A model generated the notes under the pieces. That model saw only the letters and a list, made by a program, of their open reading frames with translations, ran no database searches and was not told the origin of the DNA. From positions 1-64,000 of IMG/VR virus record IMGVR_UViG_3300045971_000431: a stretch of DNA of 64,000 bases. One strand, 5' to 3'. Origin of the DNA: a virus. The translations under genes and the position numbers were made by a program. Shown one piece after another: positions 17,813 through 57,474 of the stretch; the first letter of the stretch is position 1; each line of letters starts with the position of its first letter.

Positions 17813-17852
17813 GAGATAGGCTCCGTAGATGGTAGCCTATTTACAGCCAGAC

Positions 17853-34899: not shown

Positions 34900-36789
34900 T
34901 CAGATCTCGCAGCCGCCAGCCGTGCAGGCCAGAAGCTGAGCACCTTCGACGTTGTCGTCGACCTCGACGATGCTGTCCCAGTTCAGGTTGCCCGGAATCT
35001 TGTCCAGCAGGTCAAGGTACTGCTTCTCAGTGCAGTCCTCGTACGGGGCTTGACGATAGGAACCGCCGTCGTATGGCAGGAATGACACCCCTGACATCTC
35101 GTCGAAGTGGTCCCACACGAAGGCACCGACGGCCGGCCATTCCTTTTCAGTGACGGAGATGGTGACCGACGGCTTGTGCTCGCAGTAGTGTCGCTGGAAC
35201 ACCAACCAGAGCTTCAGGTGTTGGATTGCTGTCAGATCCTTACGCAGGAGAGCGCCTTCCGGTGCCTTCTTCGGAAAGGTGAATACCGTAGTAGACCCAG
35301 GCTTCGTGACATCAGGTTCGTGCGGAACGCCAGCAGCGATCATGAACTGCGTCAACGGATCCTTGTTGTCAGCACGAACGCGACGGTAGTAGTACGCGGC
35401 GTGACGAGCATGCAGACCGGAGGCGGTGTCGCAGCGTTGGCTGACCGTGCCCGATGGCTTGATTGCTGTCGTGGCGGTAGCTTGCGGGATGCCGAGTTCT
35501 TCAGCGAAGACGCGGTTGATGTCGATGACATGGTCCCGAATCTCTTCCAGAATGCGAGCCATCTCAGGATCGTCTGGGTTCGTGAACATGTGGTTGTCGA
35601 ACACACCTGTCATCGAGACGCCGAGCAGACGCTCAGCTTCGGTGTTGTCGCGCCAGACCTTGCGAAGGTACGGGAAGTGGGTCAGTGTCGACTGGAACGT
35701 GCCGAGAATGGCAGCAACACGGGCCTTCCGCTTCAGTGACTCGACCGTATCTTCAGCGCGAACGATCACTTCGGTCAGGTTGCAGAACTGGTACGGACGG
35801 AGGATGATCTCGGAGCACGGGTTCGTGCCGAAGTCGAAGTTTGGATCACGACGACCATTCTTCTTCACGACCTTGACTGCAGCTTCGCGATTGAAGATGC
35901 CGCGCTCACCTGACTTCGACTCGTACAGGGACAGCCATTCGCGCATGAACACGCCGACGTCTGGCTTCTCGGTGTAGCATGCCGAGTTGTTGGCGAGAGC
36001 ACGTTGGCCTTGGGTTTCCCACCATGCACCGCTCTTCGCGTGACGCATCCGGTCATCGGACAGGTTCGACAGCGAGATCATTGCCGAGCGACGAACGCCG
36101 CCGACGACCACAACTTCACCGATCTTGCACATGATGTCATGGCACTCGAGCGAGTTCAGCTTCCGCCCTTGAGCGTTCTTGAACGTGCGAACCACGAACT
36201 CGAACAACGCGATCAGCGGCTCAGGACCCGAAGCACGACCACCAAACGTCTTCAGGCGGGCGCCAGCTTCACGAACCTTCTCAGTGTTCCACCGTGGTGC
36301 TTCACCGGCGTACAGCAACGTGATGATCTGGCGCAGTGCCTTGGACCAGCCTTCCTTGGAGTCGGACACCACAACCGTGGTCTCGCTGTCATAGATGCGC
36401 TCAGGAATCTCAGGCAGCTTGTTCACGTACTGGCGTTCGACGCTGAAGCCAACACCGGTGCCACAGAGCAGGATGTACATGGCTTCGTCGAACGACTTGA
36501 TGTCATCAACTGGCAGGTACGAGCAGTTGTAGCCAGCGGTGTTGTCACGTTGTAACGCCTTACCTGAGGTCATCAGGGCGCGCATTGACGGCATGGCTTC
36601 TTGGAAGTTGATGGCGTCATGGAGCTCCTGATAGAGGTCCACGGGCATCCGATAGTTGTGCTTGGCTTCGAGGTGGCCCTTCATGAAGTCCATGTAGCGG
36701 GTGACAGTCTCGCCCCAGTTCTCACGACGGCGTTCCGCATCGATGTAGCGGGCGTAGCGGGACTTGGCAATGAATGTTTCGTAAAGCAT
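34900..36789 (-). CDS. nrdJ: Class II (adenosylcobalamin-dependent) ribonucleotide reductase
   Basis: YNCSY, GTGVGF, TNPCSEI, KPSGT, C-terminal CTAGGCEI; no R2 gene adjacent. Confidence 0.93.
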   Translation of the reverse strand: MLYETFIAKSRYARYIDAERRRENWGETVTRYMDFMKGHLEAKHNYRMPVDLYQELHDAINFQEAMPSMRALMTSGKALQRDNTAGYNCSYLPVDDIKSFDEAMYILLCGTGVGFSVERQYVNKLPEIPERIYDSETTVVVSDSKEGWSKALRQIITLLYAGEAPRWNTEKVREAGARLKTFGGRASGPEPLIALFEFVVRTFKNAQGRKLNSLECHDIMCKIGEVVVVGGVRRSAMISLSNLSDDRMRHAKSGAWWETQGQRALANNSACYTEKPDVGVFMREWLSLYESKSGERGIFNREAAVKVVKKNGRRDPNFDFGTNPCSEIILRPYQFCNLTEVIVRAEDTVESLKRKARVAAILGTFQSTLTHFPYLRKVWRDNTEAERLLGVSMTGVFDNHMFTNPDDPEMARILEEIRDHVIDINRVFAEELGIPQATATTAIKPSGTVSQRCDTASGLHARHAAYYYRRVRADNKDPLTQFMIAAGVPHEPDVTKPGSTTVFTFPKKAPEGALLRKDLTAIQHLKLWLVFQRHYCEHKPSVTISVTEKEWPAVGAFVWDHFDEMSGVSFLPYDGGSYRQAPYEDCTEKQYLDLLDKIPGNLNWDSIVEVDDNVEGAQLLACTAGGCEI

Positions 36790-37065
36790 TTACTCTCCGT
36801 TAGATTGTTCGTTCAGTTGTTTTCGGGTCATTTGGGGACGGAGTTTGATTGCAGCTTCGGCATCGCCTTGAAGGACAACTTTGCCAATCAGCTTACGTCG
36901 GTACTCACCAGTTTCCCACTGTGTCAATGCAGGTTCTCCAGCCACCTTTCGGCGGACAGTCTCCTGCGAAATCAGATACTCCACGAAGTCCATGTTGTAC
37001 GTCACATTCGCAGATGTAACGACACTGAATACCCGAGGAGGTTTCATATCAGAATTGTAACTCAC
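36790..37065 (-). CDS. Hypothetical protein
   Basis: ORF abutting nrdJ. Confidence 0.5.
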   Translation of the reverse strand: MSYNSDMKPPRVFSVVTSANVTYNMDFVEYLISQETVRRKVAGEPALTQWETGEYRRKLIGKVVLQGDAEAAIKLRPQMTRKQLNEQSNGE

Positions 37066-50968: not shown

Positions 50969-50976
50969 TATTTATA
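50969..50976 (-). promoter_or_regulatory. Late promoter TATAAATA for PEP-CTERM operon
   Basis: Exact consensus. Confidence 0.65.
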
Positions 50977-52506: not shown

Positions 52507-54963
52507 TTAGAGAGCTGCGATCACGAATGCGAGCAGTTCCTCGTATCGAATACCGAGGCGAGTAACCAGTGTAGCTCCTGCAGTTTCTGCTGGTACAGTC
52601 TCGCCATTCAGCGTGTACCAAGTGTCCTCGCAGAACAAGCCGTAATCGTTGGCATTCAATCCAGCAGCAGTAAATGCAGCCTGGACGTCTTGAGCAATCA
52701 CACCCACGTGAATGCGAGCTGCAGCACCCTTGGCAGCAACAGCATCCTTGAACTTGAAACGGCGGATAAGACCCTTGATTGCCGTTGCAACCTGAAGCTC
52801 CGCGGCTGACAAGGTAAGAACCTGCTCTTTCAGGTTTGCATCAGACGTATTGATTACGCTTGAGGAAGCATAGATAGAGCCCCAACGATATGACATGCTT
52901 CCAAGGCTTGCCATACCATCCATCACTGGCGTCAATGAGGATTCAATTTTGGTATTGCCCCATATCGTAGTGCTCGTGGAGTCAATTGAAATCTTCTTTG
53001 CATTACTAGCTCTGATGTAAACGCCACCTGAGTATGACGACGACAGCACAAGACTACCAGACATACCGCAGTCCATTACGGATCCGCTAGAATACCCAAC
53101 GTATGCATCGCTCATACCTGAGAGTGTCATTGATAGATAACCAATGCGCAATGCAGCATTTGTGCCACTCGACATTCCCATCGCGCTCATCGTACCAATT
53201 GCGATGCCCGAAGAACCCGTTCCGCTGTATGAGCCGTCAAGATACAGTTGAGCATTATCCATGGACATTGATGATCCAAGTTTAATGCTGCCGCTTCCGG
53301 TGTTGCCACTGCTTGAAAAGATTGTGGCTCCCATATAAGAGAAGGTCTGGTTACTTGTCCAAGTGTTCGAAGCAGTCAGACTGGCGCCACCACTAGACGC
53401 ATTTTGCCAAGACGGAGAACTTGAAAGTCCACCTGAAGTCAGTACTTGGCCAGAATTACCTGCACTGCCATTTATTACAAAAAGTGCGTTGGATGAGAAA
53501 GTCAAAGAATTGCTATTGATTGTGAGGCCACCGAAGCAACTCGTTGCTCCACTTACCGAGAGCGAAGTCAAGGTGCCAACAGAATTCAGTGACGAGGCGG
53601 TGACATTGGAAGCCAATGTCGTGCCGGTCAAAGTGCCGGCGGCCGCGGTAGGCGTTAACCATGTAGGAGAAGCTGATGTACCTCTCGAGGTAAGCACTTC
53701 GCCGGCAACACCAGCCGTGGTTCCTGTGTTAGCGGCGTTTTTCAAAAATAGTTGACTAATTGCCAAGCTCAAATTAGTGCAAGCTAGCTCGATAGTGGCT
53801 GCGGTGTTGCTACTAGGTGTACGGAATGCGGTAAACCATGTACTTGAAGTGTTCAATGCGTCATTGGCGAACTTAAAGCTTACTTGACCAGTAGTCGTCT
53901 GGTCAATAACCATAAGCTTGGTATTAGCAGCAGCACCGGAATTTGACAGCCATAGCGACGGAAGGCCACTAGGGGTACCGGCATAAACACCAGTTGTGCC
54001 AATCGTTGCGCTCGGGACCAGTGATGCTGTGGCGGTCAATGTTGTAACTGCAGTCGTTGGTGTCGTCCACGTAGGAGTAGCACCAGCGCCAGCAGAAGTA
54101 AGCACTTGACCAGATGTACCGGCAGAGGCACCAACTTGCAGTGGTGATGAAGCACCAGCCAAGTTGAGAGCACCAGTCTGTGTGTGGGTGCCGCTAACGG
54201 CAAGTGAGCCGAGCGTGCCTACTGAAGTCAGTGATGAGCCAGTGACACTGGCAGCAAGTGTAGTACCTGTCAGCGTTGAAGCATTGACAGAGTTGCCACC
54301 CAACTGGGCGAACGTCATCGCTTGGGTGCCGACTGCAGAAATAGTGGCAGTTTGTGTCCAAGTGGTGTCGCTATTGACCGTGCCGTCAGTGGTATACACT
54401 GCAGCGCCGTTGACTTCACCAACGTCAGGTGATCCGTCCATATCAGCAGCACGCGTCCATGCGCCCGCTGCAACAACGTAGACACCATTCTGTGTAGCTG
54501 TCGTTTGGTTCTTCGCCAACACTCGGTCACCAGCAACAAGAGCTACGCCGTCAACTGTCTGTGTGCCTGACAGCGTGATATTGGCGGTGGTAGTTGCACG
54601 TACTGCATTCTTCCAAGAGAGACCTTGCACCAAACTGTCAACATACGACTTCGTAGTCAGGTGAACAGAAGACGTTGGGTCTGCTGCAACCACATTACCG
54701 GTCACGGTAAGTGAGCCGAGGGTGCCAACGGATGTCAACGATGACGAAACGACATTCGTGGCGAGAGTTGTGCCGAGCAATGTAGCTGCATCTGCTGCTC
54801 CAGCTGAAACCCAGGCAGTGCCGCTGTAGACATACAGCGTACTATCAGTTGCTCTGAAAAACAACTCGCCGGCGTTAGCGATCAGTGGAAAAGACGTACC
54901 GGTTTCAACCGATGCGTTAGAAATTGAAGAACCTTCGACGAGACTGATGCCGTCATAAAGCAT
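52507..54963 (-). CDS. Tail fibre protein with C-terminal intramolecular chaperone (S74)
   Basis: TSDANLK cleavage motif, GVIAQDV, GIRYEEL; internal repeats; TATAAATA at 54991-54998. Confidence 0.9.
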   Translation of the reverse strand: MLYDGISLVEGSSISNASVETGTSFPLIANAGELFFRATDSTLYVYSGTAWVSAGAADAATLLGTTLATNVVSSSLTSVGTLGSLTVTGNVVAADPTSSVHLTTKSYVDSLVQGLSWKNAVRATTTANITLSGTQTVDGVALVAGDRVLAKNQTTATQNGVYVVAAGAWTRAADMDGSPDVGEVNGAAVYTTDGTVNSDTTWTQTATISAVGTQAMTFAQLGGNSVNASTLTGTTLAASVTGSSLTSVGTLGSLAVSGTHTQTGALNLAGASSPLQVGASAGTSGQVLTSAGAGATPTWTTPTTAVTTLTATASLVPSATIGTTGVYAGTPSGLPSLWLSNSGAAANTKLMVIDQTTTGQVSFKFANDALNTSSTWFTAFRTPSSNTAATIELACTNLSLAISQLFLKNAANTGTTAGVAGEVLTSRGTSASPTWLTPTAAAGTLTGTTLASNVTASSLNSVGTLTSLSVSGATSCFGGLTINSNSLTFSSNALFVINGSAGNSGQVLTSGGLSSSPSWQNASSGGASLTASNTWTSNQTFSYMGATIFSSSGNTGSGSIKLGSSMSMDNAQLYLDGSYSGTGSSGIAIGTMSAMGMSSGTNAALRIGYLSMTLSGMSDAYVGYSSGSVMDCGMSGSLVLSSSYSGGVYIRASNAKKISIDSTSTTIWGNTKIESSLTPVMDGMASLGSMSYRWGSIYASSSVINTSDANLKEQVLTLSAAELQVATAIKGLIRRFKFKDAVAAKGAAARIHVGVIAQDVQAAFTAAGLNANDYGLFCEDTWYTLNGETVPAETAGATLVTRLGIRYEELLAFVIAAL

Positions 54964-55009
54964 GGTGATACCTCCAGTGATTAACGGAGGTATTTATAGA
55001 AAGTCACCT

Positions 55010-56539
55010 CTAGGCCAGGAACGGAACTGGATCATCCCCGAACTGATCAGCCTCGTCTGCAGGGTTGACATACTCGTTGACCTGCTTGAAGGCTTCGTCA
55101 TTCCACTCGGACAGTCGCTTCAAGAGGCGGATGATGCCGACGGTAGCCATCACAGCATCGTCGGTGCTACCTGCCTTGGCCTCGTAGGAACCGCCCTTGG
55201 CCACGAAGTTCTTCAGTTCATAGAGCAGCAACTCGGAGTTGATGTTCAGGCCGTTCTTCACCTTCTCGATCAGCTGCTTCAACTGCAAGCAGGCCAGGAT
55301 CTTGGTGCGGCCAGTGGTGTAGACACCCAGCTTGCCAACAATATCACAGAACAGCTCAGCATGTTCAGGCTGCTTCTCGTCGTTCTGGTAGAGCGCAGAG
55401 ACTGCCTCACCGATACCGTTCCGTTCGAATGTCCACAGCACCTCAGCACGTCCGCGTCCTGCGTAGCCACTCAGCTTCTGGATGATCCACTTCAGCTTCG
55501 CGTAGAGGAGTGGGATGTTCACGTCATTGGTACGGTACTCAGCAATCTGATTGAGCTGTGGGAAGTCGAACACCTCGATGACCGAGAAGTCCTTGCCAGA
55601 TCCGGTTGCAGGGTCGCATGAAACCATGTACGTCTTCTGACCGCCACCGAGAGATTCATCAGGCACCCAGAACTTGAAGCCCATGTCCTCATGGTGCGCA
55701 GGTATACCCTTAAGCTGGTGGATCTTCAGCGAGTTGATCAGCATAGCGTCTGACGATAGGAACTCGCAGCCAACTTCCTGGCGGCACTTCAACAATCCGA
55801 GCTGACCGACCATCAAGTCCCAGTATGCGTCGCTACGTTCTGGGTGTTCACGCCAATGCACCTCGAATGGCTTGTAGCCATTCGTGCCACCCATGGCACC
55901 GCGCCACAGCTGAGCGAAGAGTTCAGTGTCGCCGTTTGGCGTAGACGAAATGATGGCTGAACCGCCAGTAGACAACGTTGGTGTTAACGAAGCCCACAGC
56001 TCTTCCTGAATCCGCGGCGAGATGAAGGCCAATTCGTCAAGGTAGATCTTGGTGATTGCAAGACCCCGGCCCGTCTTCTCAGTCGTGGCTTCAGAGATGA
56101 TCCGCGTGCCGTTGTCGAATTCAATATTGTGGCGATTGTAGTATTTGACGCCGCACTTGATCCATGTTGGTAACTGTTCGTAAGCGAACCGAATACGGGC
56201 GGCGATCTCAAGGGCGTGGGACTGGTTCTTCGAGGCGATCAGCAGCGTGCTGTCCTTGTTGAACATGCCGTACCACAAGAGATACATGGCTGCGGTGAGG
56301 GTCTTACCACACTGTCGAGGTTGCAGTGTGCAGACGAAACGGTTCTCCTGCATGCAGCGAACGAACCGTTCTTGGTAGTCGTACAGATCAAACGGGATGG
56401 TGCCCTTGGTCGGGTGCTGCACCATGATGTACTTGCGCATGAAGTGGACCGGGTCCTTCTGACACCGGGCCAACTCCTGAATCATTTGCGGCGTGTATTC
56501 ATCCGTCGCAAATGCCCGCTTGATTTGGGTGTTTTTCAC
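55010..56539 (-). CDS. Terminase large subunit (gp17-like)
   Basis: RQCGKT, YLDE, STPNG, DPATG..KD, DDAVMA. Confidence 0.95.
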   Translation of the reverse strand: MKNTQIKRAFATDEYTPQMIQELARCQKDPVHFMRKYIMVQHPTKGTIPFDLYDYQERFVRCMQENRFVCTLQPRQCGKTLTAAMYLLWYGMFNKDSTLLIASKNQSHALEIAARIRFAYEQLPTWIKCGVKYYNRHNIEFDNGTRIISEATTEKTGRGLAITKIYLDELAFISPRIQEELWASLTPTLSTGGSAIISSTPNGDTELFAQLWRGAMGGTNGYKPFEVHWREHPERSDAYWDLMVGQLGLLKCRQEVGCEFLSSDAMLINSLKIHQLKGIPAHHEDMGFKFWVPDESLGGGQKTYMVSCDPATGSGKDFSVIEVFDFPQLNQIAEYRTNDVNIPLLYAKLKWIIQKLSGYAGRGRAEVLWTFERNGIGEAVSALYQNDEKQPEHAELFCDIVGKLGVYTTGRTKILACLQLKQLIEKVKNGLNINSELLLYELKNFVAKGGSYEAKAGSTDDAVMATVGIIRLLKRLSEWNDEAFKQVNEYVNPADEADQFGDDPVPFLA

Positions 56540-57426
56540 CGAGTGAACTCACACATGTATTCGCGGTTGAACGCCTCTTGGCCAATCATGCTGCGACGTT
56601 CCATTGCCCACATCTCGTCAGCCCATGGTACCATTGACCACGAGATGTTGACAGGAACGAAGGCCAAACCGCCACGAAGTGAAGCACCCTTTGATGCCAT
56701 CTCCCAGAGCGCCTTAAATGGGTTCTCTGGCAGCCCCTCACCCTGACATGCAGGAGTAGAAGCAATCACGAGCTTGGTGTTACCGCCATACAAGCAAGGG
56801 CCGAAGTTCATGGCCATCTCTTGGTACGGGCCGTATGGCATATGCGCTGCTTGGTCGACGTAGAGCAGTGATACCGAAAGACCACGCCCAGCGTGTGCAG
56901 AGCAGGCAGAAAAACGGATGCTTGATCCATTGTGGAATTCGATGCATTGACGGTTGAAGTACCTGATATCGCAACGCAACCAAGATGGCAGTGCATCATG
57001 CATCTGCTTAATGCGTTTACGCATTTCCACACCAAAGTCAAACTTCGGCACGATGACCAGTGAGGTGCGATTGCTCTGGAACATGGCATCCCACAAAATG
57101 TAGGCGAGCATCAGAGTCGTGGTGCCCATCTGGCGTGCATGCTTGCAGACGATCTTGCGGTGATGCGGGTTGTGGACTGCGTCGAGCATCTGGCGCTGGC
57201 CCTCATAGAGCTTCATGTCAACTTGACCATGAACTGGATGCATCACCTTGACGTATTTCTCGATGAAGTAGGCAGGATCCTGCATGCAGCGCACCAGCTC
57301 GCCCTTCTCTTTTTCGGTGTAGACGTGTTCCAACGGATACACACGGCCTGGGCTGGACTTGATGGAACCTTGGATGCTGACGTCAGCAACAGCTTGTGTC
57401 TTGGCGCGCTTGGATAGGATCAACAT
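56536..57426 (-). CDS. TerL ATPase-domain paralog with degenerate Walker motifs
   Basis: RQMGTT, YVDQ, ASTP; ends at REYMCEF, no nuclease domain; TAAATA at 57455-57460. Confidence 0.85.
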   Translation of the reverse strand: MLILSKRAKTQAVADVSIQGSIKSSPGRVYPLEHVYTEKEKGELVRCMQDPAYFIEKYVKVMHPVHGQVDMKLYEGQRQMLDAVHNPHHRKIVCKHARQMGTTTLMLAYILWDAMFQSNRTSLVIVPKFDFGVEMRKRIKQMHDALPSWLRCDIRYFNRQCIEFHNGSSIRFSACSAHAGRGLSVSLLYVDQAAHMPYGPYQEMAMNFGPCLYGGNTKLVIASTPACQGEGLPENPFKALWEMASKGASLRGGLAFVPVNISWSMVPWADEMWAMERRSMIGQEAFNREYMCEFTR

Positions 57427-57474
57427 TGGAGAAGTCTCCTTGAAGTGGATCCTGTATTTACTTCTCGGCGGGGG

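Follow-up and report, generated by a model that had tools for sequence, protein, structure and literature searches.

The 64,000-nucleotide stretch of viral DNA analysed here (the window; positions 1 to 64,000 of the IMG/VR record IMGVR_UViG_3300045971_000431) carries, overlapping the start of the gene for a complete large terminase subunit (TerL), a gene for a 296-amino-acid (aa) protein, P0001. Judged by its motifs, P0001 is predicted to be a catalytically dead paralog of TerL that consists of the ATPase domain only. The reading that we favour, at a little below an even chance, is that P0001 is a non-catalytic accessory or regulatory terminase subunit that would bind TerL and that stands in the genomic slot of the small terminase subunit (TerS). 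The record is 87,755 bp long, stems from a pond metagenome and has a CheckV completeness of 32%, and the window is thus a fragment of the genome of an uncultured jumbo phage. Its TerL is a complete T4-type TerL, the nearest cultured relatives of which are found in the jumbo phages RsoM2USA (47% identity), XacN1, Xoo-sp13, Phosso and PA5oct. Identical pieces of the P0001 gene, including the short N-terminus (57261-57411), are present on contigs from a second pond and from a wetland metagenome, obtained in two other studies, demonstrating that the gene sequence is not an assembly artefact of one sample.

A TerL motor domain without its catalytic residues

P0001 shares 30% identity with its own TerL over 263 residues (BLASTP, E 3e-40), and this similarity covers only the N-terminal ATPase half of TerL (residues 15-260). 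Both proteins pass the Pfam Terminase_6N cut-off of 22 bits, P0001 with 27.6 and TerL with 45.2 bits. An earlier note on this DNA, made by a model from the letters alone, had proposed that the open reading frame (ORF) is a relative of the TerL ATPase domain in which the Walker A motif RQCGKT has become RQMGTT and the Walker B motif YLDE has become YVDQ, and that it stops at the end of that domain and lacks the nuclease. Each of these claims is borne out. Alignments with the window TerL and with T4 gp17 agree on both substitutions, and in the gp17 alignment T102 takes the place of the Walker A lysine, Q192 that of the Walker B glutamate, and Gly76 that of the tyrosine in the DYQ motif. The C-terminus of P0001 (REYMCEF-TR) aligns with RQEVGCEF of TerL, which marks the ATPase domain boundary, and no nuclease domain follows.

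The fold itself appears to be intact. The AlphaFold2 model of P0001 has a pLDDT of 85, and its best Foldseek matches are the structures of the T4 gp17 ATPase domain (2o0j and 2o0h; TM 0.77, rmsd 2.4-2.6 Å over 274 columns). Several elements common to TerL have been kept, namely the STP C-motif, the P-loop Arg-Gln-x-Gly and the GRG motif. P0001 therefore has the gp17-type fold of a TerL and is without the Walker A lysine, the Walker B catalytic glutamate and the C-terminal RNase H-like nuclease domain by which a TerL is recognised.

A family of short, Walker-degenerate TerL paralogs

An exhaustive HMMER search, run against 1.84 billion representative proteins, produced 5071 hits, the best 150 of which were examined. 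Thirty-six of these 150 are short proteins of 231-359 aa that stop where the ATPase domain ends and are without the Walker A lysine and/or an intact Walker B DE pair; the short TerL paralogs with degenerate Walker motifs in metagenomes thus amount to at least 36 clusters. Across the 36 proteins the position of the lysine is taken by T, I, V, M, L, N, A, S, Q or F, and the DE pair is replaced by DQ, DS, DN, DG, DA, DD, GD, SD or AD. Two orthologs of P0001, P0002 (77% identical) and P0003 (68%), retain the G-T-T and YVDQ signatures. The degeneracy read by the earlier note in a single protein is conserved in its homologues; neither the Walker A lysine nor the Walker B glutamate occurs in any of 15 clade members or on any of the six contigs of the clade described below.

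In a FastTree of the ATPase domain from which the Walker columns had been removed, a quick tree with long branches, the short dead proteins lie outside the main body of active full-length TerLs. P0001 falls in a group of 14 rows, all dead (support 89), the next node up comprises 17 dead proteins out of 19 (support 94), and P0001 is not sister to its own TerL. A topology of this kind would allow a single origin of the short dead paralogs.

Only two members from cultured phages were found among 50,697 phage records, each a singleton there, and the other members seen are metagenomic. These two are gene 242 of Xoo-sp13, with RESGTS as its Walker A, and gene 344 of Phosso, with GRSMGIT and FADN. 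Both are labelled "terminase small subunit" by annotation only. A related-locus search in IMG/VR returned no relatives of P0001, P0005 or P0024, and with P0012 and P0030 it returned only ordinary TerLs with no adjoining paralog.

Three other kinds of protein were seen among the hits. Nine short (233-257 aa), ATPase-only proteins have intact Walker A and B motifs (P0026, P0047, P0079, P0090, P0096, P0099, P0121, P0135 and P0137); most of them group with the dead proteins, and they could be paralogs of this kind that are still active, or could stem from TerL genes split in two, of which they would be the N-terminal half. TerL homologs of full length or more (429-1010 aa) in which Leu, Ile or Thr stands in place of the Walker A lysine are represented by P0119, P0144, P0145, P0148, P0153, P0022, P0021 and P0006. 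Walker B has kept its DE pair in all of these except P0006 (ED), and four of the eight form one clade; they may be TerLs with a deviant P-loop or else a further type of inactive TerL. Finally, in a set of TerLs of 561-901 aa (P0051, P0053, P0069, P0091, P0098, P0106, P0124 and P0154) the alignment is broken inside Walker A and resumes after "...THN", a signature of an intein inserted in the P-loop.

Position beside TerL

Contigs with related loci were gathered by two scans of metagenomes with DNA patterns. The first pattern was unspecific, as 115 of its 119 loci were ordinary TerLs, many T4-like TerLs having a lysine three residues before the P-loop arginine; the second, which barred lysine at the Walker position, was specific. 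In the TerL clade of the window (TerLs 73-88% identical) the dead paralog is found directly upstream of TerL in six of six contigs, the window included. In the five further contigs (L044/L153, L049/L150, L151, L152, which is the contig of P0011, and L154) the two genes are on the same strand, and stop and start overlap by 4-20 nucleotides (nt). One of them carries two tandem dead paralogs before a single TerL (L151:11839-13185; contig G001:C1, about 35357-36832), both of which open with an M-x-ILS-x-RA motif (MALILSKRAK and MNILSHRAR). Members of other subfamilies occupy the same place directly upstream of TerL in L077, in L117 and in Xoo-sp13 (gene 242). Over the nine contigs or phages covered by this count, a TerS-like position, upstream of TerL and with co-expression predicted from the overlap, is seen in the window and in eight others.

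Neither the window's record nor four complete genomes of related jumbo phages yielded a T4-type TerS (PF11053), and no neighbour of the P0001 gene matches a packaging family. XacN1 ORF256, located where Xoo-sp13 has gene 242, is not similar to the paralog family, and the gene upstream of the Phosso TerL is unrelated to it.

Expression signals

The earlier note had described an intact frame that overlaps the start of TerL, and this holds, as the TGA stop of P0001 shares bases with the GTG start of TerL in the form GTGA (Table 1). The ATG of P0001 is preceded at 8 nt by the Shine-Dalgarno sequence AGGAGA. A TAAATA box lies 34 nt upstream of the same ATG, and with this one such boxes, at 17843, 43126, 50974, 54996, 57460 and 60706, stand at a near-constant distance of 27-36 nt before six minus-strand gene starts, with the full TATAAATA at 54998, before the neighbouring tail-fibre gene, and at 50976. 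A scan for sigma-70 promoters returned nothing on the minus strand here. No TAAATA box is present between paralog and TerL, indicating that both genes are probably on one transcript. T4-type late promoters in the window phage are plausible on this pattern, and the late promoter that the earlier note gave to the paralog is likewise plausible rather than proven.

Table 1. Features of the paralog-TerL gene pair, with positions in the window.
Feature	Position	Strand	Basis
Gene of P0001, the 296-aa ATPase-dead TerL paralog, including stop codon	56536..57426	-	ORF list, ATG start
Complete TerL, 509 aa; RQCGKT and YLDE intact, C-terminal domain present	55010..56539	-	GTG start
TAAATA box, candidate T4-type late promoter for the paralog-TerL transcript	57455..57460	-	motif scan
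N-terminal motif MLILSKRAKTQAV; M-x-I-L-S-K-R-A-R is the best-conserved N-terminal part across the clade	57388..57426	-	clade alignment
Low-confidence linker, residues 14-35; remnant where orthologs carry the portal stem/clip insert	57322..57387	-	alignment, model
gp17-type ATPase-fold core, residues 36-296	56539..57321	-	alignment and structure model
Degenerate Walker A, ARQMGTTT; Lys to Thr102 at 57121-57123 (TerL has RQCGKT)	57115..57138	-	TerL and gp17 alignments
EGQ, residues 75-77, where gp17 and TerL have the adenine-binding motif DYQ	57196..57204	-	alignment
Degenerate Walker B, LLYVDQ; Glu to Gln192 at 56851-56853 (TerL has YLDE)	56851..56868	-	TerL and gp17 alignments

Two neighbours of the gene pair may be recorded here. 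Downstream, TerL is adjoined by a gene for an 818-aa tail-fibre or tail-spike-like protein (52507-54963, minus strand), which has its own TATAAATA box and the C-terminal 240 aa of which match tail fibre/spike PHROGs. Directly upstream of the P0001 gene is a run of paralogous ORFs of about 100 aa (57475-60114, minus strand), and those ORFs that were tested had no PHROG match.

Selection and divergence

Substitution rates were estimated by the Nei-Gojobori method for the least saturated pair of loci, L150 and L154, the synonymous rate (dS) being near saturation in the other pairs. For TerL the nonsynonymous rate (dN) is 0.076 and dS 0.65, giving an omega of 0.12, and for the paralog the corresponding values are 0.30, 0.80 and 0.38. 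The paralog is under purifying selection, about three times less tight than that on TerL, and it does not evolve neutrally. Neutral evolution, like intact Walker motifs in homologues, had been named by the earlier note as refuting its proposal, and on both counts the outcome favours a functional gene. Paralogs are only 34-38% identical between phages whose TerLs share 74-82%, and the paralog diverges 3-4 times faster than TerL.

The N-terminal region and its portal-derived insert

Ahead of the ATPase fold, P0001 carries a short N-terminal region that is best conserved at its very start. In the clade alignment M1 is invariant and I3 and S5 are nearly so, and M-x-ILSKRAR-type motifs are also found in L044, L049/L150, both copies of L151, L152 and L154. 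The motif is followed across the clade by a linker of variable length, and in the model of P0001 the pLDDT is below 50 for residues 11-30. Compared with P0002, P0001 lacks about 51 aa, in frame, at this place.

The residues that P0001 lacks are homologous to the portal protein, a trait of the family that had escaped the earlier note. Pfam Portal_T4 matches P0002 at residues 17-58 (22.4 bits, E 5.9e-5) and also P0050, and a precomputed match exists for P0003. In BLAST comparisons with the RsoM2USA, XacN1 and Phosso portals, P0003 residues 9-53 align at 51% identity, and P0011 residues 37-61 fall on the next conserved portal block. The search was also made in both directions with profile hidden Markov models (HMMs). 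An HMM of the family N-terminus, run against all 5376 ORFs of the loci gathered, found only portal-sized ORFs, at their residues ~255-350 (E 3e-6 to 2e-3), the next match, its own training N-termini aside, having an E of ~0.09. Conversely, an HMM of 43 portals run against 169 TerL-like proteins found P0003 (E 3.6e-11), P0002 (1.2e-8), P0050 (4.7e-5) and P0012 (2.8e-4), and no TerL below E 0.47. A phmmer search with the P0002 N-terminus against PDB sequences found no portal; the link to the portal came from the profile searches. In P0001 itself there is no significant portal match.

Mapped to T4 gp20 by way of the RsoM2USA portal alignment and the domain limits of Sun et al. 2015 (PMC4493910), the matched region is the gp20 stem helix alpha5 and the clip domain (279-358). 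The clip is the site of gp17 attachment, the gp20 tip residues N291, M292, R295 and K296 are required for packaging, and a peptide of gp20 residues 288-311 binds gp17 and inhibits packaging (PMC4493910). The stretch F-S/Y-I/V-D-V-G-D/N-M, with the helix that follows it, in P0002, P0003 and P0050 is the counterpart of this peptide.

The portal segment is present in P0002, P0003, P0050, P0011 and P0012 and absent from P0001, and its state varies from member to member. P0002 has both halves, P0003 is without the second half, P0011 and P0012 have mainly the second half, P0089 has a fragment, and many members have none. Set against the portal of a sister phage (G002), the pieces that individual members have kept cover its residues 242-336 one after another, in order. 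The insert is eroding piecemeal, with P0001, P0002 and P0003 retaining different parts. Portal homology begins after residue 11, and the M-x-ILSKRAR motif itself therefore need not be portal-derived; it seems to resemble the basic sequence N-P-x-L/I-K-K/R-A with which the TerLs of this group begin.

Other subfamilies carry other modules in the same position. In the L077 and L117 proteins (L077:5742-6740 and L117:1037-2008, both on the minus strand), which are encoded directly upstream of TerL and overlap it, an N-terminal ribbon-helix-helix DNA-binding domain (RHH_1) scores 23.4 and 31.8 bits, above the Pfam cut-off of 20.5 bits. One of these two members has RQMGMT and YLDQ, and the other has RQMGGT with the DE pair intact. 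A third subfamily (P0029, P0030, P0075, P0120 and perhaps Phosso 344) has a two-helix N-terminal extension.

What the paralog may do

P0001 is folded, constrained and catalytically empty, it would be made together with TerL, and its family bears N-terminal modules that are either the portal element on which TerL docks or a DNA-binding domain; with these properties, a role alongside TerL in packaging is more to be expected than a relic. From the fold, the loss of motifs, the family, the synteny, the selection and the portal homology we infer that it binds TerL and has a regulatory role. The pseudo-ATPase would have been derived from the TerL motor domain, would be on the late transcript of TerL and translationally coupled to it, and would occupy the genomic slot, and probably the regulatory role, that the small terminase subunit has in other phages. 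Its dead ATPase domain is predicted to keep the fold and the surfaces of TerL-TerL or TerL-portal contact, and could thereby bind TerL without burning ATP or cutting DNA. The N-terminal modules would then be the source of specificity within the family. In the ancestral form of the clade, the copy of the stem helix and clip may have engaged or masked the portal-binding site of TerL before TerL reaches the prohead, and in the sister subfamily the RHH domain may serve DNA recognition. In the window copy, from which the clip insert has been lost, the conserved basic N-terminal motif and the pseudo-ATPase would be what remains. The earlier note had offered two functions, a decoy against immunity that senses terminase and a regulatory motor subunit. 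The second fits better with the fixed place upstream of TerL, the stop/start overlap and the portal-clip or RHH modules, while the decoy has gained no positive support. A bolder version, that an uncultured clade of jumbo phages replaced or supplemented TerS by fusing a copy of the portal clip to an inactivated TerL motor domain (RHH in the sister lineage), and controls TerL by mimicking the neighbouring TerL and the portal, is possible and leans towards the improbable.

Several observations weigh against an accessory subunit in the TerS slot. The binding to TerL is purely inferential, and P0001 has no TerS family or fold similarity in Pfam or PHROGs. No second TerL-like gene is present in RsoM2USA and XacN1, close relatives by TerL, indicating that the paralog is not essential to this type of terminase. 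Phosso gene 344 is an exception to the synteny, being near the major capsid gene and 52 kb from TerL. The piecemeal loss of the clip means that clip mimicry cannot be the present function in the window phage. Finally, the three- to fourfold faster divergence, together with the tandem duplication, is also the pattern of an arms race.

Such a pattern might be expected of a packaging brake or competition factor, that is, a dominant-negative look-alike that sits on the portal clip or on TerL and either times packaging or cripples co-infecting relatives or satellites. We regard this as unlikely. One dead subunit would be expected to poison a ring ATPase, the long forms carry a segment homologous to the gp20 peptide that binds gp17 and inhibits T4 packaging (PMC4493910), and fast evolution and duplication in one contig would fit. 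However, co-translation with its own TerL at a similar dose would poison the phage's own packaging, the window copy is without the clip tip, and synteny fixed in every clade member suggests a housekeeping role.

Fast evolution and the duplicated copy would also suit an anti-defence protein, as would the patchy distribution among related phages. It might act as a decoy or sponge that occupies the TerL sensors (Avs1-3 and Upx) or the portal sensors (Avs4 and Avs11) without activating them, or as a shield of TerL. TerL ATPase domains alone suffice as ligands for Avs2 and Upx (PMC13601566), and both Avs targets have a mimic within the family, one being of the TerL ATPase domain and the other of a piece of the portal. 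Nevertheless, this explanation is decidedly unlikely. Avs2 and Avs3 read terminase active-site residues and bound ATP, and T4 vs.8, a TerL-ATPase-like, ATPase-only protein with intact Walker A and B motifs, activates EcAvs2 and does not block it (PMC13601566). These sensors would therefore more probably overlook a protein that has no nucleotide site than bind it as a sponge. The paralog would be expressed from a late-type promoter alongside TerL and not ahead of it, a decoy would be expected to show neither the strict place before TerL nor the RHH fusion, and the portal piece is the clip only and not the whole fold that is enveloped by the Avs sensors (PMC13581612). An ATPase-fold protein devoid of the features that Avs2 and Avs3 read would show how a terminase-like protein can exist without being a target.

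The completeness of the ATPase fold, with the STP, P-loop and GRG elements in place, and the translational coupling of the two genes could be accounted for if P0001 were a structural member of the motor ring, with dead and live subunits alternating or mixed on the portal, as in clamp loaders or F1 alpha/beta. The nearest TerL relatives work without a paralog, though, TerL motors studied so far are homomeric, and the 34-38% identity among paralogs, against 74-82% for TerL, is a high divergence for a partner at a ring interface; we give this arrangement a slim chance. A functionless, decaying duplicate is very improbable and largely refuted. It could explain the lost catalytic residues, the eroding N-terminal insert and the faster evolution relative to TerL, but no copy seen has a broken frame, the paralog has a dN/dS of 0.38, and proteins with only ~30-37% identity still share the N-terminal motif and core positions; synteny and overlap are likewise maintained, and the independent clusters number at least 36.

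Terminases rank with the best-studied molecular motors and are viewed as a TerL and an unrelated TerS; to our knowledge, no TerS has been identified in many jumbo phages. A conserved pseudo-ATPase in the TerS slot, bearing a copy of the portal clip or a DNA-binding domain, would if confirmed be a new way to build or regulate a packaging motor, and a natural case of a viral pseudo-enzyme put together from domains that were shuffled between two partners of one machine. As the cultured phages Xoo-sp13 and Phosso carry members of the family, its function is directly testable.

Comparison with known systems

The T4 gp17-type TerL (Terminase_6N; PDB 2o0h and 3cpe) is the system to which P0001 is most plainly related. 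The fold is shared (TM 0.77), P0001 matches gp17 at E 1e-21, and the domain boundary is the same. Unlike gp17, P0001 is without the nuclease, the Walker A Lys, the Walker B Glu and the adenine-stacking Tyr. It has an extra N-terminal motif, its relatives have the portal-clip insert, and it is encoded by a separate gene beside a complete TerL.

With TerS (for example T4 gp16, PF11053) the likeness is one of place and behaviour. The P0001 gene overlaps TerL from upstream, and its product is predicted to be non-enzymatic and evolves fast; the sister subfamily has an N-terminal RHH DNA-binding domain, and the two members from cultured phages are annotated as TerS. TerS is defined by a ring oligomer and by DNA recognition; among the paralogs, only the sister subfamily has a recognisable DNA-binding domain.

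T4 vs.8 (219 aa; L149:7254-7913) is, like P0001, an ATPase-domain-only relative of TerL in a T4-type phage, encoded apart from TerL. In contrast to P0001, it keeps Walker A and B, and it lies in the early/middle region, far from gene 17. It falls in phrog_1488 and has a weak match to the TerL family phrog_2 (E 1.7e-5). P0001 was also considered as a vs.8-like protein and rejected as such, there being no detectable similarity between the two (BLASTP E 1.7) and their PHROGs being different.

The N-terminus of the long forms is homologous, in order, to alpha5 and the clip of T4 gp20 with its 288-311 peptide, including the tip motif (D-V/T-G-N/D-M) and helix alpha6. It differs from gp20 in that the long forms carry only a portal piece of ~95 residues, fused to a TerL-like domain, and in that this piece is mostly lost in P0001.

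The clamp-loader subunits delta and delta' and the F1 alpha subunit are pseudo-enzyme paralogs in which fold and partner surfaces were kept and nucleotide hydrolysis was lost. For P0001 these serve as an analogy only, since the homology is limited to the P-loop fold and membership of P0001 in a ring is conjectural. In the library searched, no paper was found on Walker-dead TerL paralogs, on a TerL-portal chimera, on a TerL-like TerS or on TerL decoys. The proteins described here form a new family of terminase-associated pseudo-enzymes, to which the nearest described object is T4 vs.8, and there is a fair chance that they constitute a new class of terminase subunit.

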